Assembly (NCBI GenBank): GCA_964539115.1
Contig: CAZIHY010000003.1
Coordinates: forward strand, 1 to 47,203
Length of the DNA: 47,203 bases
From: an uncultured Oscillospiraceae bacterium
GTDB taxonomy: Bacteria; Bacillota; Clostridia; Oscillospirales; Oscillospiraceae
Direction: 5' to 3'
Numbering within the stretch: the stretch's first letter is position 1; the number at the start of each line of letters is the position of its first letter. Of this stretch, positions 8,380 through 24,912 are shown piece by piece. A program made the translations under genes and the position numbers. The notes beneath the pieces were generated by a model. That model did not search any database. It was not told where the DNA came from and saw only the letters and a program-made list of their open reading frames with translations.

Positions 8380-8408
8380 AGCCCGACGGGATAAAACCGT
8401 CGGGCTTC
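8380..8408 (-). terminator. Intrinsic terminator of the thiolase operon
   Basis: AAGCCCGACGG-gataaaa-CCGTCGGGCTT. On the minus strand the stem is followed by TTAATATTT. It lies 20 nt past the thiolase stop codon. Confidence 0.65.
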
Positions 8409-8427
8409 ATTATAAGTTGATAGATTA

Positions 8428-9576
8428 TCAGTTGGTGAGAATGCTCATGTAGCCGATAGCGGGGCTGGACAGCGTGACAAGTCCGCCGCCGACCATCTGG
8501 GCCAGACCAACATGGCAGTTCGGCTGCTGACGCTCGCCGCACTCGCCGCGGAGCTGATGGGTGATCTCACAGACAACGCGGACGCCGGAAGCACCAAGAG
8601 GATGACCAAGGGACTGAAGTCCACCGGAGGGATTGACAGCGCAACGGCCACCGATCTCAGCTTCACCGTCACGTATGAATCTCTTAGTTTCGCCCTCGGG
8701 GCAGAGACGCATGACCTCATACATGTAGAGCTCTTCGGGGGAGAAGGCGTCGTGCAGCTCAACGACCTGGATCTGCTCGGGCGCGATACCAGACTTGGTG
8801 TAGACGTCATCGGCGAGCATGCGGATCAGGGGAGCCTCAAGGACGTCCTCATCCCACGCGGTGTACGGGCTGGACAGGAGGGAGGAAGCCTCGATCTTTA
8901 TGAGCTTGGTGGTGTACTGCATGGCGATTTCCTTAGTGCACATGATAACAGCGGCTGCGCCGTCAGACTGAGGGCAGCAGTGCAGAACAGTAACAGGGTC
9001 GGAAATCATCTTTGCGTTCATAACATCCTCAAAGGTGATAGCCTTACGGAAATGAGCATAAGGATTGGAAACAGCATTTCTGTGGTTCTTGATGGAAGCA
9101 TAGGCCAGATCCTCGAGGGTCATGTCACGTGCCTCCATAAGGCGTTTTGCATTCAAAGCTGCAAGACCGGGCATAGTGATACCCATAAGGCCGTCAATGT
9201 CGCCCTCTGCGGTCGGGATAAGGCCGCCGTTAAGCTTGGAACGGGTGAGGGAATCAACGCCGATTGCAATACCAATGTCCTTGTAGCCAAGGGCTATGTC
9301 TTTCCACAGGGAGTGGGCAGCGTCGCCGCCGGAAGCGCAGGCGTTCTCAATGTTGTGCATCTCGATAGCAGCAACACCGACATACTTCAGAATATCCTCG
9401 CACTGCTGGCTGGAACCTTCGCAGTGAGCGGCATAAGCGATCTCAAGCTTACGGGGATCGATGCCGGCGTCGTCGATAGCGGCGCGGACGGCGATTTCGC
9501 CAAGGCGGGAGGGATGGAGTTCAGGCTGTTTGGTGAACTTGGTCTGACCAACGCCAAGGATATATACGTCTCTCAT
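8428..9576 (-). CDS. Thiolase-family protein (SCP-x/archaeal-type acetyl-CoA C-acyltransferase-like)
   Basis: MRDVYILGVGQTKF N-terminus, active-site Cys context NIENACASGG, and C-terminal NPSGGLQSLGHPLGASG thiolase signature. Confidence 0.8.
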   Translation of the reverse strand: MRDVYILGVGQTKFTKQPELHPSRLGEIAVRAAIDDAGIDPRKLEIAYAAHCEGSSQQCEDILKYVGVAAIEMHNIENACASGGDAAHSLWKDIALGYKDIGIAIGVDSLTRSKLNGGLIPTAEGDIDGLMGITMPGLAALNAKRLMEARDMTLEDLAYASIKNHRNAVSNPYAHFRKAITFEDVMNAKMISDPVTVLHCCPQSDGAAAVIMCTKEIAMQYTTKLIKIEASSLLSSPYTAWDEDVLEAPLIRMLADDVYTKSGIAPEQIQVVELHDAFSPEELYMYEVMRLCPEGETKRFIRDGEAEIGGRCAVNPSGGLQSLGHPLGASGVRVVCEITHQLRGECGERQQPNCHVGLAQMVGGGLVTLSSPAIGYMSILTN

Positions 9577-9996
9577 TTATTTGTCCTCCTTAACGATATG
9601 GTACTTGGGGCCGATGACAATCTTGTCCTCGTCTTCCCAATAGGTTGCAAACTCCATCTTAGCAGTAGCGCCGACTTTATAGTCAGCCTCTTCCTCTATG
9701 AACAGAGGAGCGGTAACGCGAGCCTCGCTCTCGGGGATGCTGACCCAGCAGATGGGATGGGGCTTAGGGAAGTTGCCATAGGGAGGCTTGGTGCGGGTGA
9801 TTGTGTAGGAGTAGATCGTGCCGGTGTCGGCGAGTTCATACTCTTCCTGCTCTTCGCACAGGCACTTGGTGCAGAAACCGCTGGCGGGGTAGGACTTATG
9901 ACCACACTTCGGGCAAACGCTGCCGTAGAGGTAATAAGAACCGTCTTCTCTCTGCTTACAAATGTCGTCGGAGATAAAAACTTTGGGCTTAGACAT
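9577..9996 (-). CDS. DUF35 Zn-ribbon/OB-fold protein (thiolase partner)
   Basis: CPKCGHKSYPASGFCTKC zinc ribbon followed by an OB-fold-like C-terminal half. Its stop codon abuts the thiolase ATG. Confidence 0.7.
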   Translation of the reverse strand: MSKPKVFISDDICKQREDGSYYLYGSVCPKCGHKSYPASGFCTKCLCEEQEEYELADTGTIYSYTITRTKPPYGNFPKPHPICWVSIPESEARVTAPLFIEEEADYKVGATAKMEFATYWEDEDKIVIGPKYHIVKEDK

Positions 9997-10099
9997 GTCA
10001 TTTCCTCCAAATTAAATTTCAAGTAACTTTATTTATTCTAACACTTAAAGCACGGGTTGTACATTTCTATTTATGATAAATTTAATGCACTGTTTGCAC

Positions 10100-11716
10100 T
10101 CATTCGACTCTTTCCTGGCCATCGCGTCCGGTGAGATGCATGTACTCGTCGTAAGTCATGCTTCTGTCGATACAGCCGTCAGGCGTCAGCTCTATGATCC
10201 TGTTAGCAACGGTCTGAGTCAATTGATGGTCATGGCTGTAAAAGATGATATTATGTGCAAATGCACTCATGCCGTTATTCAGGGCCGCTATGCTTTCAAG
10301 GTCGAGGTGATTGGTAGGTTGATCGAACAGAAGGATGTTTGCGCTCTCGAGCATCATCTTGGATAACATACAGCGTACCTTTTCACCGCCGGAAAGGACC
10401 GAAACGTTTTTGTAAACCTCATCCCCGGAAAACAGCATACGTCCGAGGAAAGTCCTGAGATAGCTCTCGCGCTTGTCAGCAGAGAATTGGCGCATCCAGT
10501 CTATGAGGTTATATTCACAGCCGTCAAAATAGCTATTGTGATCCTTGGGGAAATAAGACTGTGTCGTCGACGCACCCCACTTTATAGTACCCTCGTCCGG
10601 CTCAAGCTCACCGACGAGCAGCTGGAACATCGTTGTAATGGCTATTTCGCTTTCACCGATGAGAGCGATTTTGTCATCTCGGCCCATGATGAAGCTGACA
10701 TCGTTTATGACCTTAATACCGTCGACTGTTTTGGATACATTGGTAACAAAAAGCCTGTCTTTTCCGGGTTCGCGCTCAGCTTTGAAGCCCACCCATGGAT
10801 ATCGGCGGGAAGAAGCTGGCATTTCCTCAACTGTTATTTTGTCGAGAAGCTTACGGCGGCTTGTTGCCTGGCGCGATTTGGATTTATTGGCGGAGAACCG
10901 CTGGATAAAATTCTGAAGCTCTTCGATTTTTTGAGCTGCTTTTTTGTTCTGATCACGGACAAGCTTTTGCACAAGTTGGCTGCTTTCATACCAGAAATCG
11001 TAGTTTCCGACATACATCTTTATCTTTCCGTAGTCTATATCGACGATATGTGTGCAGATGTTGTTCAGAAAATAGCGGTCATGTGATACGACAAGAACAG
11101 TTCCTTCATAATCCATAAGAAAGTCCTCGAGCCAGACAACCGATGCAAGATCCAGGTTGTTTGTCGGCTCGTCGAGCAGGATTATATCGGGCTGGCCGAA
11201 AAGCGCCTGGGCGAGCAATACTTTGACTTTTTGTCTGGGGTCCATGGACGACATGAGATTATAATGATACTCCGGTGTTATGCCAAGGCCCTGGAGTATT
11301 CGAGAGGCGTCAGATTCAGCCTCCCAGCCGCCTAACTCGGCATATTCCTCCTCAAGCTCAGCCGCACGGATACCATCTTCGTCGGAGAAATCCTCTTTCT
11401 CATAGATAGCATCCTTCTCCTTGCCGCATTCATAAAGACGCTGATTGCCCATTATGACGGTTTCAATTACGGGATAATCGTCATACATGCTCTGATTCTG
11501 CTTGAGAACAGACATACGGCACTTTGGATCGATGTAAACATGCCCGCCCGTAGGCTCAGTCTCTCCGGATAGGATCCTTAGAAAAGTGGATTTTCCGGCG
11601 CCATTTGCTCCTATGATACCGTAGCAGTTGCCGGTCGTAAATTGCAGATCAACCTGGCTGAAAAGAACCTGTCCGCCATACTGCAGCGAGAGATTATCAA
11701 CAGTTATCATTTTCAA
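10100..11716 (-). CDS. ABC-F family ATPase (two ABC domains, no TMD)
   Basis: Two Walker A motifs (GANGAGKST; IGESEIAITT is degenerate). Two signatures (MSSMDPRQKVKV is degenerate; LSGGEKVR). Two Walker B motifs (ILLDEP; LLFDQP). A charged interdomain linker QKLVRDQNKKAAQKIEELQNFIQRF. Confidence 0.8.
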   Translation of the reverse strand: MKMITVDNLSLQYGGQVLFSQVDLQFTTGNCYGIIGANGAGKSTFLRILSGETEPTGGHVYIDPKCRMSVLKQNQSMYDDYPVIETVIMGNQRLYECGKEKDAIYEKEDFSDEDGIRAAELEEEYAELGGWEAESDASRILQGLGITPEYHYNLMSSMDPRQKVKVLLAQALFGQPDIILLDEPTNNLDLASVVWLEDFLMDYEGTVLVVSHDRYFLNNICTHIVDIDYGKIKMYVGNYDFWYESSQLVQKLVRDQNKKAAQKIEELQNFIQRFSANKSKSRQATSRRKLLDKITVEEMPASSRRYPWVGFKAEREPGKDRLFVTNVSKTVDGIKVINDVSFIMGRDDKIALIGESEIAITTMFQLLVGELEPDEGTIKWGASTTQSYFPKDHNSYFDGCEYNLIDWMRQFSADKRESYLRTFLGRMLFSGDEVYKNVSVLSGGEKVRCMLSKMMLESANILLFDQPTNHLDLESIAALNNGMSAFAHNIIFYSHDHQLTQTVANRIIELTPDGCIDRSMTYDEYMHLTGRDGQERVE

Positions 11717-11828
11717 ACTCCAAATTCTTAGCGATGGAAAAAGTATAACATAATGTTGCAGATTATGCTATACTTGTTTTGCAACAATAATTTCGGATTA
11801 TCGTCTGCATAATAAAGGGGTTGATGAT

Positions 11829-12809
11829 TTGATACTTGCACTGGATTCTGTTACGCACCTTCTGGTAGACGCTGTCTGTGCGTCTACCATCTTCGGAAAG
11901 TTTTCCGGAGAGAATGTAGCTCTGCTGATAATAATGTATAATACTTTGGCGTTTTCCACGCAATGCGTCATAGGCCTTATAACTGACAGGGTGGGCCATC
12001 TGCGCATGGTGACGGCTCTTGGCTCGCTTCTTGTTGTTCTGGGCTTTGCACTTCCGCTGCCCCAGGAAGTGAGAGTTGCGCTCATAGGAATGGGAAACAG
12101 TCTGTTCCATGTTGGCGGCGGAACAAGAACGCTGCTGAATGCCGATAGGAAGGCAGGTCCTTTGGGCGTTTTTGTAGCGCCGGGCTGCATAGGTCTTGTA
12201 TTGGGAACGCTTTTTCCTCAGTTTGGTACCGTTTTTGCTGTGCTTCTTACAGTTTCGGCAGCACTTACATTTGCATTAAAAAATACTCAGGACAGAGTAC
12301 ATGATAATTCTGAAAAAGAGAAGGACAGCCCAGTAATCGTACTTATTCTCCTGACTCTAGCGGTTGCGGTACGAGCGATAGGCGGTACATGCGTGTCATT
12401 TCCCTGGAAAAGCGGTGCGGCGCTGTCCATAGTTATGACTGTATTCATCTTCGCGGGCAAGACATTGGGAGGTTTTGTCTGCGACCGTCTTGGAGCCTGG
12501 AAGACCGCGCTCATATCCATGCCTCTTGCCGGAATTTTTATAGCATTTTTCAGCTCATGGATGGTCCCCTCACTTTTGGGGCAGCTTCTGGTCAACCTGA
12601 CGATGCCGGTCACTCTGTTTCTTATGTACAGGGCGATTCCCGATTCTCCGGGCTTTGCCTTTGGTCTGGCTGCGTCGGCCCTGTGGCCGGGAACCATTGC
12701 GGGAAACCTGATCCAACTGACAGGTCTGTGGCAGTCTGCACTGATAATAGCATGCTTCGTATTCGGATTGTTTTCAATACTATATGCCAAGAGGAGGATC
12801 GAAAGATGA
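11829..12809 (+). CDS. MFS-like polytopic membrane protein
   Basis: About 10 hydrophobic segments. Two motif-A-like loops (GLITDRVGHLR and GGFVCDRLGAWK) fit the internal repeat of MFS transporters. TTG start after AAAGGGG; the start is uncertain. Confidence 0.5.
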   Translation: MILALDSVTHLLVDAVCASTIFGKFSGENVALLIIMYNTLAFSTQCVIGLITDRVGHLRMVTALGSLLVVLGFALPLPQEVRVALIGMGNSLFHVGGGTRTLLNADRKAGPLGVFVAPGCIGLVLGTLFPQFGTVFAVLLTVSAALTFALKNTQDRVHDNSEKEKDSPVIVLILLTLAVAVRAIGGTCVSFPWKSGAALSIVMTVFIFAGKTLGGFVCDRLGAWKTALISMPLAGIFIAFFSSWMVPSLLGQLLVNLTMPVTLFLMYRAIPDSPGFAFGLAASALWPGTIAGNLIQLTGLWQSALIIACFVFGLFSILYAKRRIER

Positions 12810-13395: not shown

Positions 13396-14043
13396 ATGCG
13401 AATAAAGGATGTTGAAACTCTTGTCGGCATCACAAAAAAGAACATACGTTATTATGAACAAGAGGGGCTGCTGACGCCGGGGAGGAATTCTGAAAACAGT
13501 TACCGTGATTATGACGATGATGACGTTCATCGGCTAAAGCAAATAAAGCTTTTGCGAAAGCTGGGAATGCCTATCAGTGAAATAAGGGATGTTCTAGAAA
13601 AACGGATATCTTTTCCAGTCGCCGCGACCCGGCACACGGCGGCGCTAAGCGGTCAGATTAACAACCTGTCCAAAGCCCGTGTTGTTTGCGAAGAGATCGC
13701 GGACTGCAATATAAGCGTCGATACGCTGGATGTTGATGCATATCTCACACGTATGGATGAAATGGAGAGGGAAGGGACCGTTTTTGTAAACATAGGAAAT
13801 TCCGATGTAAAGAAAAAATATGCCGGTGCGATAAGCGCCGGAGTCGTGATCGTATTTCTTATGGTTGCCGCTGCCATATGGATGATATATCTGCATATGT
13901 CCGCGACGGCAAATGCAGCGCGGATTTTGTTTTCTGTTTTTAGCTGTGTGTTCATAATCGTCGCTATCGGCACGATAATTGCTCTGATGTCGCGCATAAA
14001 AGAGCTGAGGAAAGGTGAAACGGATGATCTTAGTAAATACTGA
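13396..14043 (+). CDS. MerR-family transcriptional regulator with C-terminal transmembrane helices
   Basis: N-terminal HTH MRIKDVETLVGITKKNIRYYEQEGLL and a coiled-coil segment. It ends in two hydrophobic helices (AGAISAGVVIVFLMVAAAIWMIYL; ILFSVFSCVFIIVAIGTIIALM). Confidence 0.8.
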   Translation: MRIKDVETLVGITKKNIRYYEQEGLLTPGRNSENSYRDYDDDDVHRLKQIKLLRKLGMPISEIRDVLEKRISFPVAATRHTAALSGQINNLSKARVVCEEIADCNISVDTLDVDAYLTRMDEMEREGTVFVNIGNSDVKKKYAGAISAGVVIVFLMVAAAIWMIYLHMSATANAARILFSVFSCVFIIVAIGTIIALMSRIKELRKGETDDLSKY

Positions 14044-14335
14044 TTATTTAGCCGGCAGACAGATCGAGATGTTGGGTCTTGTAAAGGGAGGCGCGGTTTT
14101 GTGCCGCAATGCCGGGCGCGATATCGGCAGCGCATTTAAGACGCTCATCGGCGGAGAACTGCAGGCATATACAGATATGATGAACGAAGCGAGAGCTTTG
14201 GCAACCAAGAGAATGGTGGAAGAGGCGGAGAAACTCAATGCCGATGCAATTGTGTGTATTCGTTATACCTCGGCGGAAGTAATGCAGGGTGCGGCTGAGG
14301 TAATGGCTTATGGTACCGCCGTAAGAATTTTATAA
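14024..14335 (+). CDS. YbjQ/UPF0145-family protein
   Basis: MILVNTDYLAGRQIEMLGLV...GGELQAYTDMMNEARALA...ADAIVCIRY...AYGTAV is the classic YbjQ pattern. It overlaps the merR 3' end. Confidence 0.8.
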   Translation: MILVNTDYLAGRQIEMLGLVKGGAVLCRNAGRDIGSAFKTLIGGELQAYTDMMNEARALATKRMVEEAEKLNADAIVCIRYTSAEVMQGAAEVMAYGTAVRIL

Positions 14336-14590: not shown

Positions 14591-14627
14591 ATCATCCCCA
14601 TCAGAGATATTCTCTGATGGGGATGAT
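14591..14627. terminator. 17-bp perfect hairpin between convergent operons
   Basis: ATCATCCCCATCAGAGA-tat-TCTCTGATGGGGATGAT. It lies between the + operon end (14579) and the end of the 12-gene minus operon (14641). Confidence 0.65.
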
Positions 14628-14640: not shown

Positions 14641-15654
14641 TCATTCAGATGGATTATAAAATTCGCAAACCTCTCTTGAGACCTCGGTGAACGTTGCTAT
14701 TGCCTCCGTGCTGTTGTTGATTTTTGTAGCAAGTATACAGAGAATATAGTCGCCGCCTGGGGTATAAATGATGGCAACGTCGTTTTCTGTATTGTCATGA
14801 TCGGGGGCATAGAGCTCTCCGGTTTTGTTTGCGGAACTGACACCTTCGAAGCCGATAAGCCCGGATGGGATTTTTGATATGCGCTCTTGCGCCTTCATCA
14901 TATTAAGAATGTCCTCAGAAGCCTGCTGGCTGACATAGGTGCCATTATATATCATCCTCAAAACCGCAGCACAGTCCGAGGCGGAGACCAGATTTTCATC
15001 GCCTTCGGCGAGAAACAATCTGTTGAGCACAGTCGAAGTACAGCCTATGCTTTGGATAAAAGCATTAACAGCCTCTTTTCCCGCACTCTCATCCCCATTT
15101 CCAAGTGTCCGTATCAAATTGTTTGCCGACTCATTATCGCTTGCAGATATCATGTTTTTCAACGAGATTTCAGTAAGCTCGTCTATTTTGTCCCCGCTTT
15201 TAAGTGCGTTGTCATAAATGGCTCCGGCAATAAAAAGCTTTATTACACTGGCTGACGTTACAGGTGATGCAGCGGTCAAACCGTTTGTTGAAACAGTAAT
15301 TTGGTCACCGCTGTCTAAATCCTCAACAAGAACTATCCAGTCGCTTGCATAGCCGGCGAATTTGCTGTCAAGGGAGATTTTAAGAGTGCTGAGATCAATA
15401 TTGCTGTTATCTTCCGGGAGGTCTGAAACGGGCTGCTCGATAGGCTCTGTTGTCTCAGGGGCAGAAGTAGCATATTCAGGACTCTGCATTGGACTTTCCG
15501 TTGGACTCTCTGTTTTTAATACAGGAGAGGGCAGTTCCGTTATTTCTGCTGTGTGATCAGAACTGCGTATCAGGTTGCCTACAAAGAAACCAAGGAAGAA
15601 CGCGGCCAGCAGAGACAGAATAAAAACAATAGTGAGAAATTGAGAATTCTTCAT
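14641..15654 (-). CDS. Membrane-anchored extracytoplasmic class-A beta-lactamase-fold serine hydrolase
   Basis: N-terminal TM and a P/T/E/S-rich stalk. Motifs S-V-I-K (SxxK), S-D-N and K-T-G are all present. The preferred start ATG 15654 is preceded by GAGGAA; the track start is 15675. Confidence 0.7.
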   Translation of the reverse strand: MKNSQFLTIVFILSLLAAFFLGFFVGNLIRSSDHTAEITELPSPVLKTESPTESPMQSPEYATSAPETTEPIEQPVSDLPEDNSNIDLSTLKISLDSKFAGYASDWIVLVEDLDSGDQITVSTNGLTAASPVTSASVIKLFIAGAIYDNALKSGDKIDELTEISLKNMISASDNESANNLIRTLGNGDESAGKEAVNAFIQSIGCTSTVLNRLFLAEGDENLVSASDCAAVLRMIYNGTYVSQQASEDILNMMKAQERISKIPSGLIGFEGVSSANKTGELYAPDHDNTENDVAIIYTPGGDYILCILATKINNSTEAIATFTEVSREVCEFYNPSE

Positions 15655-15662
15655 GGGATTCC

Positions 15663-17720
15663 TCATTTCAGACATGAATATACATAAGAGCTTACTGTGG
15701 ATGCACAGCTCATGAGCTGTGTTTGTGTGTCACCGCAGCCCATAAAGACGACAATATATGTCTCCTCACCGTTATCTACAATCGCAGCCTCATTATACAA
15801 ATTACTGCGCACACCATTGTGATTCATAAAGGTGTATCGGTTATCAACACCGCCGCCAAGGCCTTCGCCCGCGGTGGAATCGATAATGTACATGTTTTCC
15901 CGAAGGTAATCTCGGCCGCCGTCAAACTCACCGTTCCAAATAAGCTCAAGTATGCCCGCAACGTCGGCCGCGCTTACATAGTTTTCGTTGCTGCTGGTAG
16001 TGAATCCAATATTTGCATTGACGACAACGCTGTTGAAACCGTAATATGCGCAGACGTCCTCTATATGGCTGAATCCGAGATAATTCATCAAAGTGTTTGC
16101 AGCGTTGTTGTCGCTGTAACTGAGCATCGCGTACATCAGTGTGGAAATTTGAATATAATCTCCGTCATTTGCCGACGTCAAATATCCTCTGCCGTTAGAC
16201 TGATAATCAAAATATGCCTTGTCGCTCATCTTCAGAAAGCCGTTATCGACATCGTATAATATAGTCAGCATGATCGGAATATTTATCAGCGCTGAAGAGA
16301 TAGACTTGGAATAGGCACTGCCGGCAGAATACTGCATTTCCCGCGTGACGTCTGTTATAAAGACTGAAGCATCTGAATAGGGTGCGTAGTTGTTAAGAAG
16401 CCTGTCAAGCTCATTTTCATCCACAAGCGGATCATAATACACAGGCTCCGGGGTGGGCGTAACAGGCTGAGACGTGCTTACAGGAGGAGTTGCAATAATA
16501 TTACTGTCTTGTTGATCCGACGAATCCTGAGGCGTATCAATATTTGAAGTGATCTCGTCGTCCGGCTCATCCTCTGTAGTTTTGCATCCGCGAAGGATCA
16601 GCGCGGCAACCAGGGCAATCAAAAGGGCGGCACAGACACCGATAAGTACGATTATAAGCGTTTTGGACGCTCCGGCGCTTTTTTTAACCGTGCCGCTTGA
16701 ATTGTTATTATTGTTGTTGTTGCTGAGGCCATAGTCTCCGGAATAAGCGGAAACTGTCTTCTCATTTTGGTATATGCCGGCATCCTGTCTATAGTAAGCA
16801 GGTTCTCCCGTCAGCGCCTGTTTCATTTCAGCGGCCGTTGAGAATCTCTCCTCTGGCTGGAATTTGCAGGCACGAAGAATTATATTACTGAGTGCAGGGG
16901 AGGCGTAAGCGGGCACTGGAAGTGGCCGGCCGGAAAAGCGCATACCGTTTGAATTCTCGATATCATCAGCAGTTACAGGAGCAGGCGGAAGCGCGACAAA
17001 AGGCGGCCTGTTTGCATTGCACAGGCGATAGAGAACAAGCCCCAGAGAGTAAATATCGGAACGAAAACTGACGGATTGACCGCGGTTCAGCTCCGGAGCC
17101 ATATAATTGAGCGTTCCGGCGATCGTAACGCCCGCATTTGCATTGTCAAGAGACCTTGAGACGCCAAAATCTCCGAGCTTGAATTCTCCGCTGTTGCTGA
17201 CAAAAATATTGCTGGGTTTTATATCACGATGCAGGATGTTGCGGCTGCTCATGACCTCCAGTGCGGTACATATGTCAATGCCCAGTCTGCGCACCTCATT
17301 TTCGGTTATTGCGCGCTGCTGCAGCAGTACGGGTAGGGGAGTAAGCAGCTCCATGCGTATGAAAATATCATATCCGGGCCCATCTTTCTTGGGCACGACC
17401 ATATGATCCTCATATGACACTATGTTGGTATGCCCCTTGAGGCTGACATTGATCTCGATTTCCCTAAGCAGGCGCTTGAGCATATTTTCATAATACGCAC
17501 CGAGAGAGCTGGGATCGGTAACAATTCCATCAGCATACAGGCTGTCAGCTTCGTTTTTATCCTGAGGGATGGAAATATGTTTAATCGCAGAGTAATAAGT
17601 ATTGGTTTGTCCGTATTCAACTCTGTGTGCTCTATATACCTTACCATGGCTGCCCTGTCCGATCAAATCATCGATCTCCCAAGTACCCCAAAGCGGTGTA
17701 AAGCTGTGTATATCAGACAT
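15663..17720 (-). CDS. Hanks-type Ser/Thr protein kinase - TM - degenerate beta-lactamase-fold ectodomain
   Basis: GQGSHGKV, AIK, HRDIKPSN, DFG and APE motifs. Poly-Asn juxtamembrane run, then TM LIIVLIGVCAALLIALVAALIL. The C-terminal ~245 aa align with the downstream serine hydrolase (SDN kept) but lack SxxK (SSALIN) and have HNG in place of KTG. Confidence 0.8.
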   Translation of the reverse strand: MSDIHSFTPLWGTWEIDDLIGQGSHGKVYRAHRVEYGQTNTYYSAIKHISIPQDKNEADSLYADGIVTDPSSLGAYYENMLKRLLREIEINVSLKGHTNIVSYEDHMVVPKKDGPGYDIFIRMELLTPLPVLLQQRAITENEVRRLGIDICTALEVMSSRNILHRDIKPSNIFVSNSGEFKLGDFGVSRSLDNANAGVTIAGTLNYMAPELNRGQSVSFRSDIYSLGLVLYRLCNANRPPFVALPPAPVTADDIENSNGMRFSGRPLPVPAYASPALSNIILRACKFQPEERFSTAAEMKQALTGEPAYYRQDAGIYQNEKTVSAYSGDYGLSNNNNNNNSSGTVKKSAGASKTLIIVLIGVCAALLIALVAALILRGCKTTEDEPDDEITSNIDTPQDSSDQQDSNIIATPPVSTSQPVTPTPEPVYYDPLVDENELDRLLNNYAPYSDASVFITDVTREMQYSAGSAYSKSISSALINIPIMLTILYDVDNGFLKMSDKAYFDYQSNGRGYLTSANDGDYIQISTLMYAMLSYSDNNAANTLMNYLGFSHIEDVCAYYGFNSVVVNANIGFTTSSNENYVSAADVAGILELIWNGEFDGGRDYLRENMYIIDSTAGEGLGGGVDNRYTFMNHNGVRSNLYNEAAIVDNGEETYIVVFMGCGDTQTQLMSCASTVSSYVYSCLK
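16806..17720 (-). repeat. Kinase-domain paralog copy 1 (dispersed direct repeat with 26164-27063)
   Basis: Long runs are shared with copy 2, e.g. CATATGATCCTCATATGA...CCCTTGAGGCTGAC and CTGACAAAAATATTnCTGGGnTTTATATCACG. The proteins are collinear (FTPLWG.WEID..IGQGS.GKVYRA...). Confidence 0.7.
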
Positions 17721-17797: not shown

Positions 17798-18532
17798 TTA
17801 TGGTGATGATGGATCCTCAGCAGAGGGCGTGAACGGATCGACGGGAGTAAGCTTTCCCGGGGACTCTTGGGCCGGGGGTTCCTGTATAGGAGCTTCTGTT
17901 GACGCAGATGTTGCAGGAGCGTTTTCGGTTGGCTTGTATGTAGAAATAATGACCGTCTGATCTGTGCCGGGCGATATCTCCGCTTCTTTTACAATGATGG
18001 TGATACTTATAGATTGATTGTTCACAGAATATGTTGCACGGCACTGGGCCTCACCGGCTGACATCGCAGTAAGAGTTCCGGAATCTATAAGAAATACAGA
18101 CTCGTCAAAACTTTTCCATGTTATTGACTCTGTGTCGGCCGGCTCACCATCTGCGAGAAGTTCGATTTTGGCAGCTTCACCAACATGTAGGACGATTGAG
18201 TCCCCGGCGGCATATATGGTTCCGCTGCCTCCGCGAAGGGAGAGACCGGCAAGATCGGCCACAAGCGGAGCAGAGGAGATATCAGTCTGCGGTAGATCCG
18301 TGTCCTCTTCGGGATCCGCTGGAGACACTGTATCATAAAAAGGCGTGGGTGAAACCGAAGCGCTTTTCTGCCCGTTTTCAGCCGTAAAATATCCGGAGAT
18401 AAACAGAACTCCCGCCGTAAGCAGTACAACGACAGCTATAATGGATAATATACGCATGGAAATGGGCACGAATGGAGGAAAAACAGTATCTGCCAACGCG
18501 TGTCTTTTTTCGCCCCTGTTTTGCCGAGCCAT
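17798..18532 (-). CDS. Membrane-anchored protein with Big_2-like Ig domain and P/T/S/E-rich tail
   Basis: TM ILSIIAVVVLLTAGVLFISGYF. ITWKSFDESVFLIDSGTLTAMSAGEAQCRATY resembles bacterial Ig-like group 2 domains. GGAGG RBS. Confidence 0.5.
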   Translation of the reverse strand: MARQNRGEKRHALADTVFPPFVPISMRILSIIAVVVLLTAGVLFISGYFTAENGQKSASVSPTPFYDTVSPADPEEDTDLPQTDISSAPLVADLAGLSLRGGSGTIYAAGDSIVLHVGEAAKIELLADGEPADTESITWKSFDESVFLIDSGTLTAMSAGEAQCRATYSVNNQSISITIIVKEAEISPGTDQTVIISTYKPTENAPATSASTEAPIQEPPAQESPGKLTPVDPFTPSAEDPSSP

Positions 18533-18556: not shown

Positions 18557-19651
18557 TTATTGGAGCCTGAATACGTTTGAACGATTGCCGAGCATGATGA
18601 CCGTTCCCGGGTTAAGCGGTGTGGGCACATTTTGATTTAGTCTCGTTCCGTTTTCCAGGAAAGTTCCGTTACTGGAGTAATCTGTGACATAGAAGCATCC
18701 GGTATTTCCGTCATACTGAATTAGACAATGTTTGCGGCTGACGCTTTCACCGCCGCTGCTTATTACTATCTGGCAATACGCAGGATCGCGTCCTATGCAA
18801 ATCTGCTGATTTGGCGCTATGTCAAACGCGGTTGAAGCGTACATGCCGCTCAAGCCGACTATCTTGTGCGCAGTAAAATTATTCCTGCGCTGTTCCTGCA
18901 TACCGTTCATATAGTTTGGCATATATGCCGTGCTGCTGCCGGCGGTATTTGACTCCGGCGTGCTTTCACCGGACATCTGCTTATACAGCTCTGTTAAAGT
19001 CAGATTGACATATGGAGATATGTAAAATAAATTCAGAAGATTGAAAGTAAAGCAATTGAGTATATACCATCCGATAAAGCTCAACTTTGTAATGATTATA
19101 CCGCCAATATGATCCTTAGCGATGGCAGATGCATTGTCAAGGCATTCCTTTGCTGTCTTTTCGGGGTGGTTTGCCATATAGAAGAACAGAAAATCGTATT
19201 GGCAGCTTTTATAGATAATTATAATTATCGTATAGAGGAGCCCAAGTATCATTAACAATACAGCGATACTGAAACCACCGCTGCCGCCGCCATGGAATAT
19301 ATCTCTTACGGAAGTTCGCGCTATCACTCCTCCGATTATATAAAAAACAAGAGAGGGCAGTGTCCAGAGAAACATGAAGAGAAAATACCATATATAGCCC
19401 ATAATTGCACGAGAGAAAAGTGAAAAACCCTCAAGAACGCTGGACATGCGGGGAGTTTTTCCTGAGGTCTCCTCGAGATACCATGTGCATATACCGACCT
19501 TTGCGGCAGCTATTCCGAATGGAACGATGCTGAGAAGGACCGCCAGCATGTCAGCGCCTACGCATGCGCTCAGTCTTGTTGACATGACCTGCTTTGCACA
19601 TTCCTTTGCATGTGTCCTGTTAAACACCGTAAATTCCTCCTTATTCTTCAT
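18557..19651 (-). CDS. DUF975-like integral membrane domain fused to a C-terminal FHA domain
   Basis: Multi-TM N-terminal part ending in ...HPEKTAKECLDNASAIAKDHIGGIIITKLSFIGWYILN...ISPYVNLTLTELY (DUF975 pattern). The C-terminus ICIGRD...VSRKHCLI...SSNGTFL is a canonical FHA domain. An alternative start GTG 19627 follows AAGGAGGA. Confidence 0.7.
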   Translation of the reverse strand: MKNKEEFTVFNRTHAKECAKQVMSTRLSACVGADMLAVLLSIVPFGIAAAKVGICTWYLEETSGKTPRMSSVLEGFSLFSRAIMGYIWYFLFMFLWTLPSLVFYIIGGVIARTSVRDIFHGGGSGGFSIAVLLMILGLLYTIIIIIYKSCQYDFLFFYMANHPEKTAKECLDNASAIAKDHIGGIIITKLSFIGWYILNCFTFNLLNLFYISPYVNLTLTELYKQMSGESTPESNTAGSSTAYMPNYMNGMQEQRRNNFTAHKIVGLSGMYASTAFDIAPNQQICIGRDPAYCQIVISSGGESVSRKHCLIQYDGNTGCFYVTDYSSNGTFLENGTRLNQNVPTPLNPGTVIMLGNRSNVFRLQ

Positions 19652-20282
19652 TCATGTTCCATGAGAAACTGTCAGTGCAGCAGGGGACAAAGAGGAGCCT
19701 GGTGTTCCCTAATTTTAAAACATCCCCTGCTTTCAGCAGTGCTGTCTCCAGGACAACTTTGCCGTTTAGATAGAATAATTGGGTTGATGTTCCCGGCATA
19801 ACAAAAAAGCAATTTCCGACTGGATCATAGGACAGGATCGCATGCTTATCGGAAGATATGCTGCGGTCTCCCTTGATGGAAACGCTCATGTCGCTGCCTC
19901 TGCCGATAAAATTTCGTCCTGCGGTCAGGCGGTAATCGCGGCCCTTTGCAGCGCCTTCTATGCAGACAAGCCACCCGACGACCGGATCAATTCCGAGCCC
20001 GGAGCCTATGGCTGAAATTGTCTTATCGTTTTCAGCGGCAGATTGAGCTGCCGGTTCAGATTCCGGTCCAAACCCGGGCAATGTGGGTGAATGCGTATAT
20101 CCGGCGTTATAACCTCCGGCATAACTCTGTTGTACAGAGCCATATATATTTCCTCCCGCGAAGCCAACGGTCTTGTCAAAGCTTTTGGCCGGGTCAGTTG
20201 TCTGCATAATCTTTGCACAGTATGGACAGGTACTGTACTGAGAATTATCATAGAAATGACCGTTGCCGCATTGGATATTCAT
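19641..20282 (-). CDS. Zn-ribbon - linker - FHA domain protein (soluble)
   Basis: N-terminal C-x4-H...C-x2-C (CGNGH...CPYC). The linker carries DKTVGF and DKTISAIG. FHA block: GWLVCIEG..KGRDYRL..GRNFIGR...SSDKHAIL...YLNG. Paralog of 23007-23666. Confidence 0.75.
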   Translation of the reverse strand: MNIQCGNGHFYDNSQYSTCPYCAKIMQTTDPAKSFDKTVGFAGGNIYGSVQQSYAGGYNAGYTHSPTLPGFGPESEPAAQSAAENDKTISAIGSGLGIDPVVGWLVCIEGAAKGRDYRLTAGRNFIGRGSDMSVSIKGDRSISSDKHAILSYDPVGNCFFVMPGTSTQLFYLNGKVVLETALLKAGDVLKLGNTRLLFVPCCTDSFSWNMNEE

Positions 20283-20297: not shown

Positions 20298-21266
20298 TTA
20301 GTTGATTCTGATTAATGCCACAGATGTGTTATCTTGGCGGCTTCCCCCACGTTCGATCGCAGCCTCTACAAGCTCAGTTGCAGCGCTCTCCGTATTACTT
20401 CCGCTGCGATTGAGTATCGCTGCGATTTCCTGATCTGTAAGCGACTTGTACAACCCATCGCTTGCAAGAAGTACTATATCATTGGATATGAGCGGCGTAG
20501 CCGAATGACTGTGGTCAACTATCAGATGCTTACCAGAACCGATATAGCTGATAAGTGCGTCGCGCTTGGGGTGGTTCAATGCCTCCTGAAGCGTTATCAC
20601 GCCCGCGTTTACTTCATCCATAAGCCTTATCATAAAAACCTGATCTGTTGTGAGCTGATAGAGGGCCCCTTCACGCAGAATGTAGATGCGGCTGTCACCG
20701 GCAGAGCACCAGACAAGCTCATTATTTGCCACGACTACGGCCAAGACAGTGGTGCCGCAAATCAGAGGCCGTCCGTCCTCGTCCTGAAGTGAAGAAACAT
20801 ACTCGTTTGCACTCTTTATTGCGCTGATAATGGTCCCGTATAATGAGCTATATGGAGTTCGGGATGATAGCGCGGCGATAAGTATCTCCGTTGTAAAGGA
20901 ACTGGCTTTCTCACCACAGGCAAGTCCGCCCATTCCATCGCACAAAACCGCGTAAATTCCGTCCCGGTCATCAAAAGAGACCGGAGTGATGCTGACACAG
21001 TCCTGCTGGCTGTTCCGCCCTCCTATGGAGCTTGCGAGTGCTGCTGACATATTTCCGGACGAGAACGATACGGAACTGTCGGGGCGCCGTCTCTCAGCCG
21101 CGGTTTGAGCGTTGGAATAAACCTTCGTTTTTTCGGAGCGGGCAGTATTAAACTGTGGAGAGGATTTGGCCGAGGCTTTTTTTCTTACGGCGACCCATAT
21201 GATATAGAAACTCAGATAAGCAGCCGAAAGCACGCAAGCGATAAGCCAGATTTTTTCTTTTATCAT
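20298..21266 (-). CDS. PP2C-family Ser/Thr phosphatase with N-terminal TM anchor
   Basis: TM IWLIACVLSAAYLSFYIIWVAV followed by RKK. PP2C motifs GRNSQQD, VLCDGMGG, ASDGLY and RQDNTSVALIRI. Confidence 0.8.
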   Translation of the reverse strand: MIKEKIWLIACVLSAAYLSFYIIWVAVRKKASAKSSPQFNTARSEKTKVYSNAQTAAERRRPDSSVSFSSGNMSAALASSIGGRNSQQDCVSITPVSFDDRDGIYAVLCDGMGGLACGEKASSFTTEILIAALSSRTPYSSLYGTIISAIKSANEYVSSLQDEDGRPLICGTTVLAVVVANNELVWCSAGDSRIYILREGALYQLTTDQVFMIRLMDEVNAGVITLQEALNHPKRDALISYIGSGKHLIVDHSHSATPLISNDIVLLASDGLYKSLTDQEIAAILNRSGSNTESAATELVEAAIERGGSRQDNTSVALIRIN

Positions 21267-21303: not shown

Positions 21304-23010
21304 CTATATCGCTACGGCGCGAACTATCATTTTGGAATCGCCGAATCTGACAATGTCACCTATCTCGAGCTTATGGCGGGTATCGGGCATAATGGCGATG
21401 TTGTTCAGAAGCGTACCGTTTTTTGAGCCGAGATCGGTTACATAGAGGATCCCGTCTTCATACTCAAGGCAGAAATGCTGAGAAGAAACACGTCTGTCGA
21501 AATCGATGATAACGTCGTTTTCTTCACCTCTTCCGACAAAAACGCTGCTGCCGATCGAAAGTTCAAAATACTGCTGCCAGCCTCTTCCGTCGGCAAGCTC
21601 CACGCCTATTCGTGTGCCGCTTCCGGGCTTTATCCGGATGCGCCCGTTTTCATCCGGACGATACTCCGGCGGTGTTATCACAACAGCTTTTTTCCTGGAT
21701 TTTATAATGAACATTATGATGACAGCGGCGGCCAAAACGAGGATTACGCCTCCGATAAGCAGCCACACCCACAGCGGCAACAGTGCAGTTGCAGGATCAG
21801 CGCCGGTTTCTATCACAATTTCCACTACATCGGGTGACAAAGGATTAGCTTCCATTGATATATCCGATATGCCGCTCAAAGTCAGATAATATGTACCATT
21901 AACGGGAGGCTCGGAAAAAGACAGGGATGCTGTCTGAGCAGACACGGTAACTCCCACAAATGGTATGTGCTCATTTTCGCTGTTTGTAAAATCATAAGAA
22001 GCAAGATTGTCAGATCCGGAAACGGGTTCGCTGAACTCAATATCCAGCGTTATTTTGTCACTGTTATACTGGGCGATGGTCACATATGGAGCGACACTAT
22101 CGGCCTCCCAACGGTCAAGGATAAGCAGGGAATTATCTCCAGAGCTGCCAATATTGACTCTGAAGCTGTGTTCCTTGCCGTCGGCGATATTTGAAGCCGC
22201 GCGTACCTTCAAAAGCCAGCAGGCGGATACCTTGTCGTATAATTCATCAAGCGCGGAAGCTGCGTCAAGCTCGCTCTGTGTACCGAACATATACAGTTCT
22301 CCGCCATTCATGCGGGCGAGTGAGGCAAATTCGTCTATGTCGTCATTATTATGATCTGTGCTGCCGGCTGCGTCAACACACAGAGCGTTCAGCGCAATGC
22401 CGGCATTCTGAAGGCTGTCAATAAGCTCAGTTCGGGTCGTTCCGGCGCCGGCTTCCGCATCGTTTACACCGTCGGACACTACTATTGCGATTTTTCTCTT
22501 TCCGTCAACACTGCCGCAAAGCTCGATCAGTGTGCTGATCGCATCATAGAAATGTGTTGTTGAGTCACGGCATTCAAGTTCATCGATCGCCTGCTCGACC
22601 TCTTCATAGCTTTCTCCGCCGCTTAGGACGATTTGCACTTCGTCTCCAAATGTGATGAGTGCCATACTGTCGTTGGCGCCGAGTCGGTAATGATTATTAA
22701 GGATAGCCTGCCTGATCTCCCAAAAATAGTTCTTGTTTATGCTTGCGGAAATGTCGAGCAAATAGACATATAATGTCCCTTGGTCCGAGACAGCGGTGGG
22801 TGTTAGTGAAACTATATCTATGCTGTTTTCGTCAAGATAGACACTTATATCTTCAAGCCCCGCATCCCCGGCGTCGAGCTTATCATCATAAAAATAGATG
22901 TCGGCGTTGGGCATGACAGCCTGCACCTGTTCAATATCGACCGCAAGAGCGCACGCGGGCAAAACGAACGTGATCAAAACAGAGATCAGCAATCCTGCCA
23001 GCTTTTTCAC
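21304..23010 (-). CDS. Secreted vWA domain - Ig-like domain - TM - cytoplasmic FHA domain protein
   Basis: Signal peptide/lipobox-like VLPAC. MIDAS D-I-S-A-S (22741-22755) plus downstream T and SDG. TM LLPLWVWLLIGGVILVLAAAVIIMFII. FHA block VFVGRG...VSSQHFCL...SKNGTLL. The start GTG 23010 follows GGGGAGGA and overlaps the upstream TGA. Confidence 0.75.
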   Translation of the reverse strand: MKKLAGLLISVLITFVLPACALAVDIEQVQAVMPNADIYFYDDKLDAGDAGLEDISVYLDENSIDIVSLTPTAVSDQGTLYVYLLDISASINKNYFWEIRQAILNNHYRLGANDSMALITFGDEVQIVLSGGESYEEVEQAIDELECRDSTTHFYDAISTLIELCGSVDGKRKIAIVVSDGVNDAEAGAGTTRTELIDSLQNAGIALNALCVDAAGSTDHNNDDIDEFASLARMNGGELYMFGTQSELDAASALDELYDKVSACWLLKVRAASNIADGKEHSFRVNIGSSGDNSLLILDRWEADSVAPYVTIAQYNSDKITLDIEFSEPVSGSDNLASYDFTNSENEHIPFVGVTVSAQTASLSFSEPPVNGTYYLTLSGISDISMEANPLSPDVVEIVIETGADPATALLPLWVWLLIGGVILVLAAAVIIMFIIKSRKKAVVITPPEYRPDENGRIRIKPGSGTRIGVELADGRGWQQYFELSIGSSVFVGRGEENDVIIDFDRRVSSQHFCLEYEDGILYVTDLGSKNGTLLNNIAIMPDTRHKLEIGDIVRFGDSKMIVRAVAI

Positions 23011-23666
23011 CAACAAAATTCCTCCCCGCAGAAGGAGCGTAGGCAAAACAGGCTGTCACCGGCTTTTATCCTTGCCATGTCTCTAAGTGTTTTGGCACCA
23101 TCAAGCAGCGCCCCGTCCAAATATGTAACGGTTCCTGCTCCGGGAACAATAAACCAAGACTTAGACTCGGGATCGAATACAATTGAAAAATGACCGTCGC
23201 GGTTGATTTTTGGGTCATCGGCTATATTTATTTGCATACTGGCGGAGCGCCCGGCAAAGTTGCGCCCGGTATATAGGCGAAAATCGCGTCCTTTTTCCGG
23301 CCCTTCGATGCAGACAAGCCAACCCGCGACAGGGGAGAAGCTCTTTTTTTCTCCATAATTAAAGGCAGAGATGGTAGGACCGTCATCATTGTTCGAAAAA
23401 TCAAGAGGAAGAGGCCGCCCTGCTTGACCGGCAGACGGCGGCGCAGGAGAGTATGCGGAAGCTGCCGAAAAACCATAAGCGCCGATCGTTGCATCGAGTT
23501 CCGTCTCAGGAAATGGATGCTGTGGAAGTCTGCTGCCGTTCGAGCCAAATCCGTAAGCGTCGATCGTGGAATCCATATCATGGAACCTGCTTCTGCTGCA
23601 AATAGGACATTCATCGTTTCGCTGATCGTCATATCTATGCCCGTTTGGACAGATTCTGATCGCCAT
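23007..23666 (-). CDS. Zn-ribbon - linker - FHA domain protein (soluble)
   Basis: CPNGH...CPIC ribbon. The linker carries STIDAYGF, ATIGAYGF and PTISAFNYG. FHA block: GWLVCIEGPEKGRDFRL..GRNFAGR...NRDGHFSI...YLDG. Confidence 0.75.
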   Translation of the reverse strand: MAIRICPNGHRYDDQRNDECPICSRSRFHDMDSTIDAYGFGSNGSRLPQHPFPETELDATIGAYGFSAASAYSPAPPSAGQAGRPLPLDFSNNDDGPTISAFNYGEKKSFSPVAGWLVCIEGPEKGRDFRLYTGRNFAGRSASMQINIADDPKINRDGHFSIVFDPESKSWFIVPGAGTVTYLDGALLDGAKTLRDMARIKAGDSLFCLRSFCGEEFCW

Positions 23667-23679: not shown

Positions 23680-24912
23680 CTATTTTATTATCTCTCTTTC
23701 AAGTTTCAGCTCAAGTATTCTCATAACGCTTTCGTTAATGCGGGATTCCTCAATGCTTCCGTCCTTGACGGCAGCTGCGATAGCCTCGATCGCGCTTGCA
23801 GCATCCGCTGGGCCGAGAAGAATATCATTGCCTGCCTGGACGGCCATGACCGCTATCTCATCTGCCGTAAAAAACCCGGACAAAGCGCTCATTTCCAGGC
23901 CGTCGGTTATAACAACACCGTCATATCCAAGCCTCTCCCGCAAAAGTCCGATTATCACGTTAGCGGAGAGGGAGGCGGGGCGGTTTGGATCGATTGCGGT
24001 CATGGTTAAATGAGCGATCATCACCATGTCCGCTCCGGCTTCTATCCCTGATATGAACGGGAGCAGATCCTGCTCTAAAAGCTCATCTTCAGTTTTGGAA
24101 ACAGCCGCCGCTCCATAATGTGTATCGGCCCCCGCCGAACCATGTCCCGGGAAATGCTTGAGACAGCAGGCGATACCACCGTCATGAAAGCCCTCGACTG
24201 CGTAAGGGATAAGCTCTTCCGCCTGAGAAAAATCGTCACTGTATGCCCGTGTGTTTATTACTGTGTCATCAGCGTTTGTGTGTACATCAGCGACAGGGGC
24301 AAGATCAAGATTGAAGCCGAGCTCTTTCATATAGGCGGCAATAGTCTGTGCGTTGTCATGCGCTGTTTGGACGCCGTCGTCCTTATATGACAGCATGGGG
24401 CCGATCTTTTGAATATCAATAATGTTACCGGTTCTTGTGACGGTGCCGCCCTCCTCATCAGCGCATATGAAAAGTCCAATATCCGCTTTCGACTGGTATT
24501 CCGAGACGCTTGCGATGACCGCGTCTCTGGAGGGAATATCGGATTCAGAATATACCAGCCCGCCGACAGTCAGCCCGTCCAGCCAGTCAGAGGGATATAC
24601 GATCATCATCTGTGCTATTTTTTCCTCAAGAGTTAGTTCCGAAAGGATCTCTTCAGCTCTCCTGGAATAATCTGGTTCCGCTACAACAGGTTCTATCTCA
24701 GTCGGTTCCCGGGTGACTTCGGGAGACGGGGCAGCAGTCGGCGTTATGGTCTCAGGGGGCTCCGTCTGTAATTCGATGTTCGGGGTAGGGGAGGCGGCTA
24801 TATCTTCTGGATTAGCAGCATTACGTGTTTTTAGAAACGCGTAAGTCCCAGCGGACAGGAAAAACAGAACAAGCAGTATGATAAATGCGGTAATCAAAAA
24901 ACTTTTTTTCAT
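23680..24912 (-). CDS. Extracytoplasmic glycoside hydrolase family 3 (NagZ-like beta-N-acetylhexosaminidase), single catalytic domain
   Basis: Signal anchor and P/T/E-rich stalk. GH3 N-domain motifs ...ICADEEGG..., KHFPGHGSAGADTH and ...VITDGLEM... Confidence 0.75.
   Translation of the reverse strand: MKKSFLITAFIILLVLFFLSAGTYAFLKTRNAANPEDIAASPTPNIELQTEPPETITPTAAPSPEVTREPTEIEPVVAEPDYSRRAEEILSELTLEEKIAQMMIVYPSDWLDGLTVGGLVYSESDIPSRDAVIASVSEYQSKADIGLFICADEEGGTVTRTGNIIDIQKIGPMLSYKDDGVQTAHDNAQTIAAYMKELGFNLDLAPVADVHTNADDTVINTRAYSDDFSQAEELIPYAVEGFHDGGIACCLKHFPGHGSAGADTHYGAAAVSKTEDELLEQDLLPFISGIEAGADMVMIAHLTMTAIDPNRPASLSANVIIGLLRERLGYDGVVITDGLEMSALSGFFTADEIAVMAVQAGNDILLGPADAASAIEAIAAAVKDGSIEESRINESVMRILELKLEREIIK

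Follow-up and report, generated by a model that had tools for sequence, protein, structure and literature searches.

A Hanks-type kinase bearing a catalytically degenerate class A beta-lactamase-fold ectodomain, and its intact neighbor, in an uncultured Oscillospiraceae bacterium

In this work we describe a pair of adjacent genes from an uncultured Oscillospiraceae bacterium, found in a stretch of 47,203 nucleotides (contig CAZIHY010000003.1 of assembly GCA_964539115.1, positions 1 to 47,203; the whole of this stretch is the window in what follows). The upstream gene of the pair encodes a Hanks-type Ser/Thr kinase, kinase 2, which displays outside the membrane an entire domain of the penicillin-recognizing fold with its catalytic residues lost; the downstream gene, the partner, encodes a membrane-tethered protein of the same Pfam family, PF13354, with all its motifs intact. 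The degenerate domain (the dead domain) belongs to a strongly conserved clade, its gene is repeatedly paired with one for an intact enzyme, and the family of that enzyme keeps company with peptidoglycan hydrolases. From these observations we infer that the dead domain may bind a ligand, that this ligand may come from peptidoglycan and that its binding may be coupled to the kinase. Both open reading frames, and every sequence string quoted from them in a first-pass annotation made from the nucleotide sequence alone, are present as given there. Related loci and proteins are cited below by our L and P numbers. The features of kinase 2 are as follows:

15663-17720, reverse strand: kinase 2 gene, 685 amino acids, comprising Hanks kinase, membrane helix, linker and dead PF13354 ectodomain (open reading frame, Pfam and orthologs).
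16827-17678, reverse strand: kinase domain, amino acids 15-298 (Pfam PF00069 Pkinase, E 3.4e-39).
16701-16721, reverse strand: run of seven Asn, amino acids 334-340, in the cytoplasmic juxtamembrane segment before the membrane helix.
16593-16661, reverse strand: single membrane helix, amino acids 354-376 (hydropathy scan).
16443-16592, reverse strand: extracellular linker, amino acids 377-426, acidic and rich in Pro, Thr and Ser, preceding the PF13354 match.
15666-16448, reverse strand: dead ectodomain, amino acids 425-685, of class A beta-lactamase/PBP-A fold and catalytically degenerate.
15744-16364, reverse strand: PF13354 (Beta-lactamase2) match, amino acids 453-659 (E 6.7e-22; score 78.3 bits, cutoff 22).
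16275-16304, reverse strand: degenerate first motif SISSALINIP, amino acids 473-482, with Ala477 at the nucleophile position and Asn480 at that of Lys73.
16182-16196, reverse strand: NGRGY loop, amino acids 509-513, aligned with the 100-105 region of TEM-1, including Tyr105.
16095-16118, reverse strand: retained second motif YSDNNAAN, amino acids 535-542, with Ser536-Asp537-Asn538 corresponding to S130-D131-N132.
15807-15827, reverse strand: degenerate third motif MNHNGVR, amino acids 632-638, with His634-Asn635-Gly636 replacing K234-T235-G236.

The ectodomain can be assigned to its fold with little ambiguity. An AlphaFold2 model of amino acids 425-685, built on an alignment of 80 sequences, has a mean predicted local distance difference test score (pLDDT) of 96.6 and a predicted template modeling score of 0.94, with helix alpha2 beginning at Ser476. 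Searched with Foldseek against the PDB, it recovers as its top match PBP-A (Tll2115 of Thermosynechococcus; 2j7v/2j9o) with a template modeling score (TM) of 0.85, E ~1e-16 and ~19% identity, followed by the class A-like structures 4hes and 4ewf, then BlaB of Streptomyces cacaoi and then many class A beta-lactamases; the scores to PBP-A, 4ewf and the class A enzymes span TM 0.80-0.85. Together with the PF13354 match, this confirms the beta-lactamase-fold ectodomain proposed in the first-pass annotation. The PDB contains no solved structure from within the dead clade; SxxK is retained in the two nearest entries, 4ewf and 4hes.

The chemistry expected of this fold is absent. Among the three marks of active-site serine penicillin-recognizing enzymes, the ectodomain possesses SDN and lacks both SxxK and K-T/S-G; sequence and fold place it in PF13354, but outside the active-site serine enzymes. 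The placement of Ala477 and Asn480 agrees across four alignments, namely a gapless phmmer alignment to 4ewf, a MAFFT alignment that took in TEM-1 and five partner enzymes, and two hmmalign runs. A HMMER alignment to 4hes introduces a one-residue deletion at the nucleophile instead, with Ser and Lys absent either way. A conserved Ser, Ser476, stands one residue ahead of the canonical nucleophile position. The first-pass annotation had reported the loss of the SxxK and KTG lysines; this holds (Asn480 and His634) and was understated, as the nucleophile Ser is missing too, and none of the alignments shows in the kinase ectodomain the correctly placed SxxK or KTG that, by its own criterion, would have refuted it. 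What is kept is the SDN loop, the Asn of strand beta3 and the Gly-Arg-Gly loop, whose equivalents line the substrate cleft in class A enzymes and which may do the same here.

This degenerate state is maintained in related proteins. The full-length kinase orthologs P0004-P0009 all keep SALIN and NHNG at ectodomain identities of 44-83%. Comparison with the close orthologs gives the ectodomain and the whole protein similar identities (83/80/70/67/65% as against 81/77/67/66/67%), and the ectodomain is therefore under selection rather than decaying; we rejected a decaying, pseudogene-like domain in view of its strong conservation in both the orthologs and the wider clade.

We searched 1.84 billion representative proteins exhaustively with a profile and obtained 2174 matches at E<=1e-3; 98 representative clusters reach E<=1e-30. 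Only 2 proteins came from a word-indexed search for homologues of the isolated ectodomain; the relatives were reached by profile and full-length searches. We aligned 155 sequences, made up of the best profile-search matches and the kinase orthologs: 128 have degenerate motifs, 8 intact and 19 partial ones. Across the 128 degenerate members the nucleophile (S70) position is occupied by Ala in 99, Val in 18 and Gly in 8; the K73 position never carries Lys; and the K234 position, likewise devoid of Lys, is His in 40, Leu and Gln in 28 each and Phe in 25. By the same count, the residue before the nucleophile position is Ser in 118, S130 is retained in 120 and N132 in 115, and the T235 position is Asn in 117. 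Also nearly invariant in the dead clade are the Gly-Arg of the GRG loop (amino acids 510-512), a Tyr-Asn-Glu after beta3, and Asn580.

Most dead domains are not borne by kinases. In 56 of 91 representatives an N-terminal zinc ribbon is followed by a membrane helix and the dead domain, and kinases are few, making up 19 of the 156 sequences scanned with phmmer. In a neighbor-joining tree the kinase-linked members fall in ~7 separate places among the zinc-ribbon members, and the kinase domains of the window type and the L008/L011 type are themselves divergent (E ~1e-8); these two lines of evidence suggest that the dead domain was joined to kinases more than once. As judged from their sequences, the dead domains constitute a large clade in gut Clostridia; either zinc-ribbon anchors or kinases of several lineages display them outside the membrane. 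The nearest genomic relatives come from metagenome-assembled genomes of uncultured Oscillospiraceae, and relatives are also present in the isolates Blautia sp. MSJ-9 and Lachnospiraceae MGYG-HGUT-00127. A second degenerate lineage (P0252, P0256, P0259, P0263 and P0026, the last at 2759-4744 of L003) bears A(A/G)GL(V/I)(Y/F)(I/V)P and HQ(V/T)G in place of the motifs, e.g., AGGLVYIP and HQTG; it groups closer to the intact enzymes in the neighbor-joining tree, hinting at more than one loss of catalysis.

On the cytoplasmic side, the catalytic motifs of the kinase are all intact (GQGSHG at 21-26, AIK with Lys47, HRDIKPSN at 164-171, DFG at 184-186 and APE at 208-210), and kinase 2 is, on sequence grounds, an active Hanks-type Ser/Thr kinase with a pseudo-enzyme for its extracellular part. 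A full-length homologue search found the identical combination of kinase and PF13354 in the orthologs P0004-P0009; at the site of the Asn run these have other low-complexity sequence. The best kinase match in NCBIfam is PknB_PASTA_kin, at 128 bits against a cutoff of 450 and over the kinase and juxtamembrane part only. Kinase 2 has the catalytic motifs and the single membrane helix of PASTA kinases, and Pfam finds no PASTA repeats in it; hence, it is not a PASTA kinase by membership. Pfam likewise finds no peptidase domain of the BlaR1/MecR1 kind in kinase 2, the cytoplasmic part being the kinase.

The partner gene and its surroundings are as follows:

14641-15654, reverse strand: partner gene, 337 amino acids counted from M8, membrane-tethered with motifs intact (PF13354, E 9.7e-30).
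15238-15249, reverse strand: SVIK motif, amino acids 143-146.
15121-15141, reverse strand: SDN motif, amino acids 179-181.
14815-14829, reverse strand: NKTGE, with KTG at amino acids 284-286.
14591-14627: perfect 17-bp hairpin directly 3' of the partner stop codon, between the operon and a convergent YbjQ-family gene (14015-14335).

The longest partner open reading frame runs over 14641-15675 on the reverse strand (344 amino acids); the start is most likely Met8 at nucleotide 15654, given an AGGA 5 nucleotides upstream, ortholog N-termini that begin with MK or MR at this point, and a called gene (P0269) of 337 amino acids. The two genes are separated by 8 nucleotides, with the AGGA ribosome-binding site of the partner overlapping the kinase stop codon. 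The hairpin, which probably serves as a bidirectional terminator, marks the partner as the last gene of the operon. Beyond it, a MerR-family regulator gene (13396-14043, forward strand) shares 29 nucleotides with the beginning of the YbjQ-family gene, and its product has a strongly hydrophobic C-terminal part resembling membrane segments.

The partner consists of a membrane helix (amino acids 13-36), a disordered linker and a domain that begins at about amino acid 96; its model has an overall pLDDT of 86.8, with values over 94 through most of the domain. Its SxxK, SDN and KTG, which the first-pass annotation had read correctly, are invariant across 36 homologues (29-72% identity), such that the protein carries all three motifs of the active-site serine penicillin-recognizing enzymes. 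Foldseek matches it to 4ewf, ancestral class A enzymes and PBP-A, and sequence matches in the PDB are likewise to 4ewf and PBP-A. Against the NCBIfam model bla_class_A it scores 50.3 bits, with the cutoff at 200. Its Phe221 aligns with Leu158 of PBP-A, the position at which PDB entries titled 'L158E mutant' carry Glu, and among the 36 homologues there is no conserved Glu in the region of PBP-A Leu158 and Glu166 (ExxLN). We rejected a true class A beta-lactamase on account of the score far below the cutoff and the missing Glu166 equivalent. These same features lead us to read the partner as a PBP-A-like peptidase: it is closer to the DD-peptidase PBP-A than to a true beta-lactamase, and DD-peptidase activity is predicted for it. 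PBP-A acts on muropeptides as a DD-carboxypeptidase/endopeptidase and favors amidated ones (PMC11189452).

The dead ectodomain and the partner domain share only ~24% identity in the MAFFT alignment, and the GRG loop is deleted in the partner family. On both counts we rejected a recent tandem duplication as the origin of the pair, and they point instead to an old partnership. The first-pass annotation had called the two domains paralogs; this is right at the level of the family, both being PF13354, and goes too far if a close relationship is meant.

The partnership recurs well beyond the window. An intact gene of the PF13354 family with the NKTGE-type motif comes right after the dead-domain gene, in the same orientation, in 13 of the 16 informative loci, and the intact relative noticed beside the kinase in the first-pass annotation thus proves to be a conserved feature across distant lineages. 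Apart from the window, with kinase 2 as carrier, the paired loci are L001/L007 and L006 from the Oscillospiraceae metagenome-assembled genomes (70-80% ectodomain identity); L004/L005, in which the dead-domain gene is partial; L002 and L003, with kinases as carriers; L008, with a Lachnospiraceae kinase; L009 from Ructibacterium, with a carrier that is not a kinase; L010, with a zinc-ribbon protein; L026, with two tandem kinase/enzyme pairs; L027, with a zinc-ribbon kinase; and L036, with a dead-domain fragment. In L026 (1-7902, from a metagenome) a third kinase gene comes after the two tandem pairs, and the first pair is of another degenerate type (QDN ... AHRG). Downstream of the distant kinase/partner pair of L002 there is a gene (7929-12530) for a 1533-amino acid FHA-FtsK/SpoIIIE protein, which we take to resemble EssC; on this resemblance, the lineage may be linked to type VII secretion.

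Both fusions and gene neighborhoods tie the PF13354 partner family to peptidoglycan hydrolases. In L003 and L015 the partner is fused to Amidase_3, a family of N-acetylmuramic acid (MurNAc)-L-Ala amidases, and in L003 a glycoside hydrolase family 3 (GH3) gene continues after the fused partner. The gene order in L019 is Amidase_3, PF13354, zinc-ribbon-Amidase_3, zinc-ribbon-Lectin_C and GH3; that in L010 is zinc-ribbon-dead domain, intact enzyme and zinc-ribbon-Lectin_C; and L020 has a Peptidase_M15_4 gene nearby. The link to peptidoglycan drawn in the first-pass annotation is strengthened by these fusions and by the L019 cluster, and a lectin-like/GH3 pair recurs in L004 and L019.

That second pair is also present in the window, upstream of the genes discussed so far and amidst a set of signaling genes, all on the reverse strand:

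17798-18532, reverse strand: 244-amino acid membrane protein, directly upstream of kinase 2.
18557-19651, reverse strand: DUF975-FHA protein, upstream of kinase 2 (Pfam).
19641-20282, reverse strand: FHA protein, upstream of kinase 2 (Pfam).
20298-21266, reverse strand: PP2C phosphatase, upstream of kinase 2 (Pfam).
21304-23046, reverse strand: VWA-FHA protein, further upstream (Pfam).
23007-23666, reverse strand: FHA protein, further upstream (Pfam).
23680-24912, reverse strand: NagZ-like GH3 enzyme, after kinase 1 (NCBIfam beta-N-acetylhexosaminidase, E 1.4e-46, below the cutoff of that model).
24931-27063, reverse strand: kinase 1, with an ectodomain that is lectin-like by transitive homology.
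27079-28041, reverse strand: PP2C phosphatase, further upstream (Pfam).
28058-30331, reverse strand: FHA-FHA-ABC exporter with two N-terminal FHA domains (Pfam).

The kinase domains of kinase 1 (P0011) and kinase 2 are 75% identical, their ectodomains being unrelated; on this comparison the two are paralogs that differ in the sensor domain. By phmmer, the kinase 1 ectodomain is homologous to kinases and zinc-ribbon proteins that bear Lectin_C; a direct Pfam scan finds no lectin domain in it even at E<=1, and our label is accordingly one of transitive homology. The order of a Lectin_C-type ectodomain gene followed by GH3 is found again in L004 and L019, and two pairs of a binding-type ectodomain followed by a hydrolase, i.e., dead domain/PF13354 and lectin-like/GH3, thereby recur across the loci.

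The operon codes for two PP2C phosphatases, five FHA-domain proteins, one with DUF975 and one with VWA, and the FHA-FHA-ABC exporter. The Blautia-type loci L011 and L028-L035 also have genes for FHA-ABC, DUF975-FHA and small FHA proteins on the flanks of their dead-domain kinases, the FHA-ABC exporter homologue being upstream of the kinase; given this shared company, the FHA and ABC proteins of the operon are likely to be the readers of the phospho-signal of kinase 2. The architecture of the exporter is presumably that of Rv1747 of Mycobacterium tuberculosis. Pfam finds no resistance gene and no BlaI-type repressor in the operon. The 244-amino acid membrane protein has no significant family match, with a weak hit to Big_2 (E 0.06); in L001 and L006 a homologue directly precedes the kinase 2 orthologs, and in L003 this place is taken by a 240-amino acid gene.

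Several known systems offer partial parallels. Like the PASTA kinases PknB, PrkC, Stk1 and IreK, kinase 2 is a Ser/Thr kinase that crosses the membrane once and bears outside it a domain borrowed from penicillin-binding proteins. PASTA kinases are thought to read peptidoglycan fragments and, like kinase 2, have PP2C and FHA genes nearby. Unlike in these, the presumed sensor of kinase 2 is a whole catalytic-fold domain shorn of its chemistry, with an active relative encoded next to it. BlaR1 and MecR1 also use a penicillin-binding fold as the extracellular sensor of a membrane signaling protein; the domain of BlaR1 is of class D type, becomes covalently acylated and signals via a zinc protease, whereas that of kinase 2 is of class A type, lacks the acylation residues and is joined to a kinase. 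No solved structure matches the dead domain better than PBP-A of Thermosynechococcus elongatus, which is also among the best sequence and fold matches of the partner; the partner likewise has no Glu at the Leu158 position. Unlike the ectodomain, with S70, K73 and K234 gone, PBP-A is a soluble, active enzyme. BlaB of Streptomyces cacaoi (2wuq) resembles the ectodomain in its class A/PBP-like fold (TM 0.76). It is reported to act in regulation rather than as an enzyme, keeps the three motifs, is not a kinase ectodomain and falls outside the dead clade.

At the level of concept, a parallel lies in the degenerate LytM factors EnvC and NlpD, which are dead copies of a hydrolase fold that control active cell-wall amidases; the concept is that of a dead domain with an active partner, and the fold, partners and organisms differ. 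In Bacillus subtilis the secreted NagZ, AmiE and NamZ act together on extracellular peptidoglycan, the GH3 enzyme NagZ cooperating with a stem-peptide-releasing amidase (PMC8054146). The window and its relatives similarly combine NagZ-like GH3, Amidase_3 and PF13354 enzymes; however, the Bacillus operon is catabolic, with neither kinases nor dead domains. AmiE, moreover, belongs to another beta-lactamase-fold family, PF00144, and not to PF13354.

Putting these features together, we propose the following mechanism, to which we would assign a probability of about one half. The ectodomain would be a receptor pseudo-enzyme in which the substrate cleft of a PBP-A-like peptidase survives and an acyl-enzyme can no longer form; it would bind a peptidoglycan stem peptide or muropeptide without cleaving it. 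The partner enzyme would produce or remove this ligand, and occupancy of the ectodomain would alter the activity of kinase 2. The resulting phospho-signal might then be read by the DUF975-FHA and VWA-FHA proteins and the FHA-ABC exporter, with the PP2C phosphatases resetting it. Kinase 1 with its lectin-like ectodomain and the NagZ-like GH3 enzyme would furnish the matching module for the glycan part of peptidoglycan.

Certain observations weigh against this proposal. The partner gene is absent from the Blautia-type loci (L011, L028-L035) and from L022/L024, and in L025 (1-2299) a GH3-like gene takes the place of the intact PF13354 partner after the dead-domain gene. Family members mostly bear a zinc ribbon rather than a kinase, any signaling role of that ribbon being hypothetical, and the neighbor-joining tree of the dead domains carries no support values. 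The DD-peptidase activity of the partner is predicted from homology and gene context, and the placement of the conserved residues at the cleft comes from the TEM-1 alignment and knowledge of class A enzymes. Finally, as K234 is gone and T235 has become Asn, residues that would hold the substrate, peptide binding may itself have been lost or altered along with catalysis.

Alternatively, the dead domain might be a protein partner of the adjacent enzyme, docking with it, activating, inhibiting or localizing it, or sensing its state. The strict adjacency and tight coupling of the two genes in the 13 of 16 informative loci would suit such a role, as would the disposition of both proteins on one face of the membrane, each on a single helix and a long flexible linker. 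We nevertheless regard it as unlikely: the residues conserved in the dead clade lie at elements of the catalytic cleft (SDN, the beta3 Asn and the GRG loop), which a small ligand fits better than a protein interface, and some lineages have no partner gene nearby. A role in mere wall anchoring or localization of the kinase or zinc-ribbon protein, with no control of the kinase by ligand, seems less probable still. The dead domain is found mostly on zinc-ribbon anchors with no known enzymatic output, and PASTA domains act partly in localization; yet, such a module would still have to bind a wall component and to this extent overlaps with the receptor proposed above, and the repeated association with kinases inside FHA/PP2C operons favors a use in signaling.

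It is quite improbable that the ectodomain retains catalysis by way of other residues, e.g., with Ser476 as the nucleophile and another base. Ser precedes the nucleophile position in 118 of the 128 degenerate members, S130 and N132 are retained, and helix alpha2 of the model starts at Ser476, all as such a variant would have it; against this, all 128 lack Lys at both the K73 and K234 positions, the latter varying among His, Leu, Gln and Phe and hence being no conserved catalytic residue, and a role as helix N-cap by itself accounts for Ser476. Scarcely credible, to our minds, is a non-covalent beta-lactam sensor similar in function to BlaR1 but operating without acylation. The fold is that of a beta-lactamase, and penicillin-binding folds do serve as antibiotic sensors in BlaR1 and MecR1; with the nucleophile absent from the dead domain, however, covalent sensing in the style of BlaR1 is impossible, the operon has neither resistance gene nor BlaI-type repressor, and the genomic context is one of peptidoglycan hydrolases. 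A beta-lactam, which the first-pass annotation had listed among the candidate ligands, is on these grounds an unlikely one for the kinase 2 ectodomain.

Returning to the stem-peptide receptor, a broader form of it can be put forward as a speculation, one that we consider less likely than not. Here, the dead domain and its intact neighbor would represent a general cassette of gut Clostridia, consisting of a receptor and its cognate enzyme. The enzyme might set the level of a particular stem-peptide species, such as pentapeptide as against tetrapeptide or amidated as against non-amidated forms, and the pseudo-enzyme, having kept the cleft, might report this level across the membrane through a kinase or zinc-ribbon head. 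The lectin-like protein and the NagZ-like GH3 enzyme could constitute a second cassette, for glycan; the two together might allow a PASTA-independent sensing of the bacterium's own wall or of fragments from its neighbors.

To our knowledge, Hanks kinases that read the wall have been known almost only through PASTA domains. Our search of the literature turned up no account of kinases or zinc-ribbon proteins that carry a dead PF13354 domain, nor of the domain family, and a review on the sensing of soluble peptidoglycan fragments makes no mention of PASTA, BlaR or PrkC. The first-pass annotation had thought such a sensor unusual: this is so in the literature searched and not in sequence space, where the 98 representative clusters (E<1e-30) speak otherwise. 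Wall-sensing Hanks kinases were known before, as were pairs of pseudo-enzyme and enzyme in wall metabolism; what is new is a large, uncharacterized clade of dead ectodomains of class A fold with a dedicated active partner. A whole catalytic fold for recognizing penicillin has here been turned into a non-catalytic ectodomain and maintained by selection in well over 100 sequence clusters; it is found with several kinase lineages, and its gene almost always has that of an active relative beside it. The relatives in the sequenced isolates Blautia sp. MSJ-9 and Lachnospiraceae MGYG-HGUT-00127 make the hypothesis testable. If the binding of stem peptides holds true, it would mean: (i) a second, structurally tractable route to peptidoglycan sensing in Gram-positive bacteria; (ii) a role for many of the 'serine hydrolase / beta-lactamase' annotations in gut Clostridia that have no part in resistance; (iii) a clean pair of pseudo-enzyme and enzyme in which to study how sensors evolve from enzymes.

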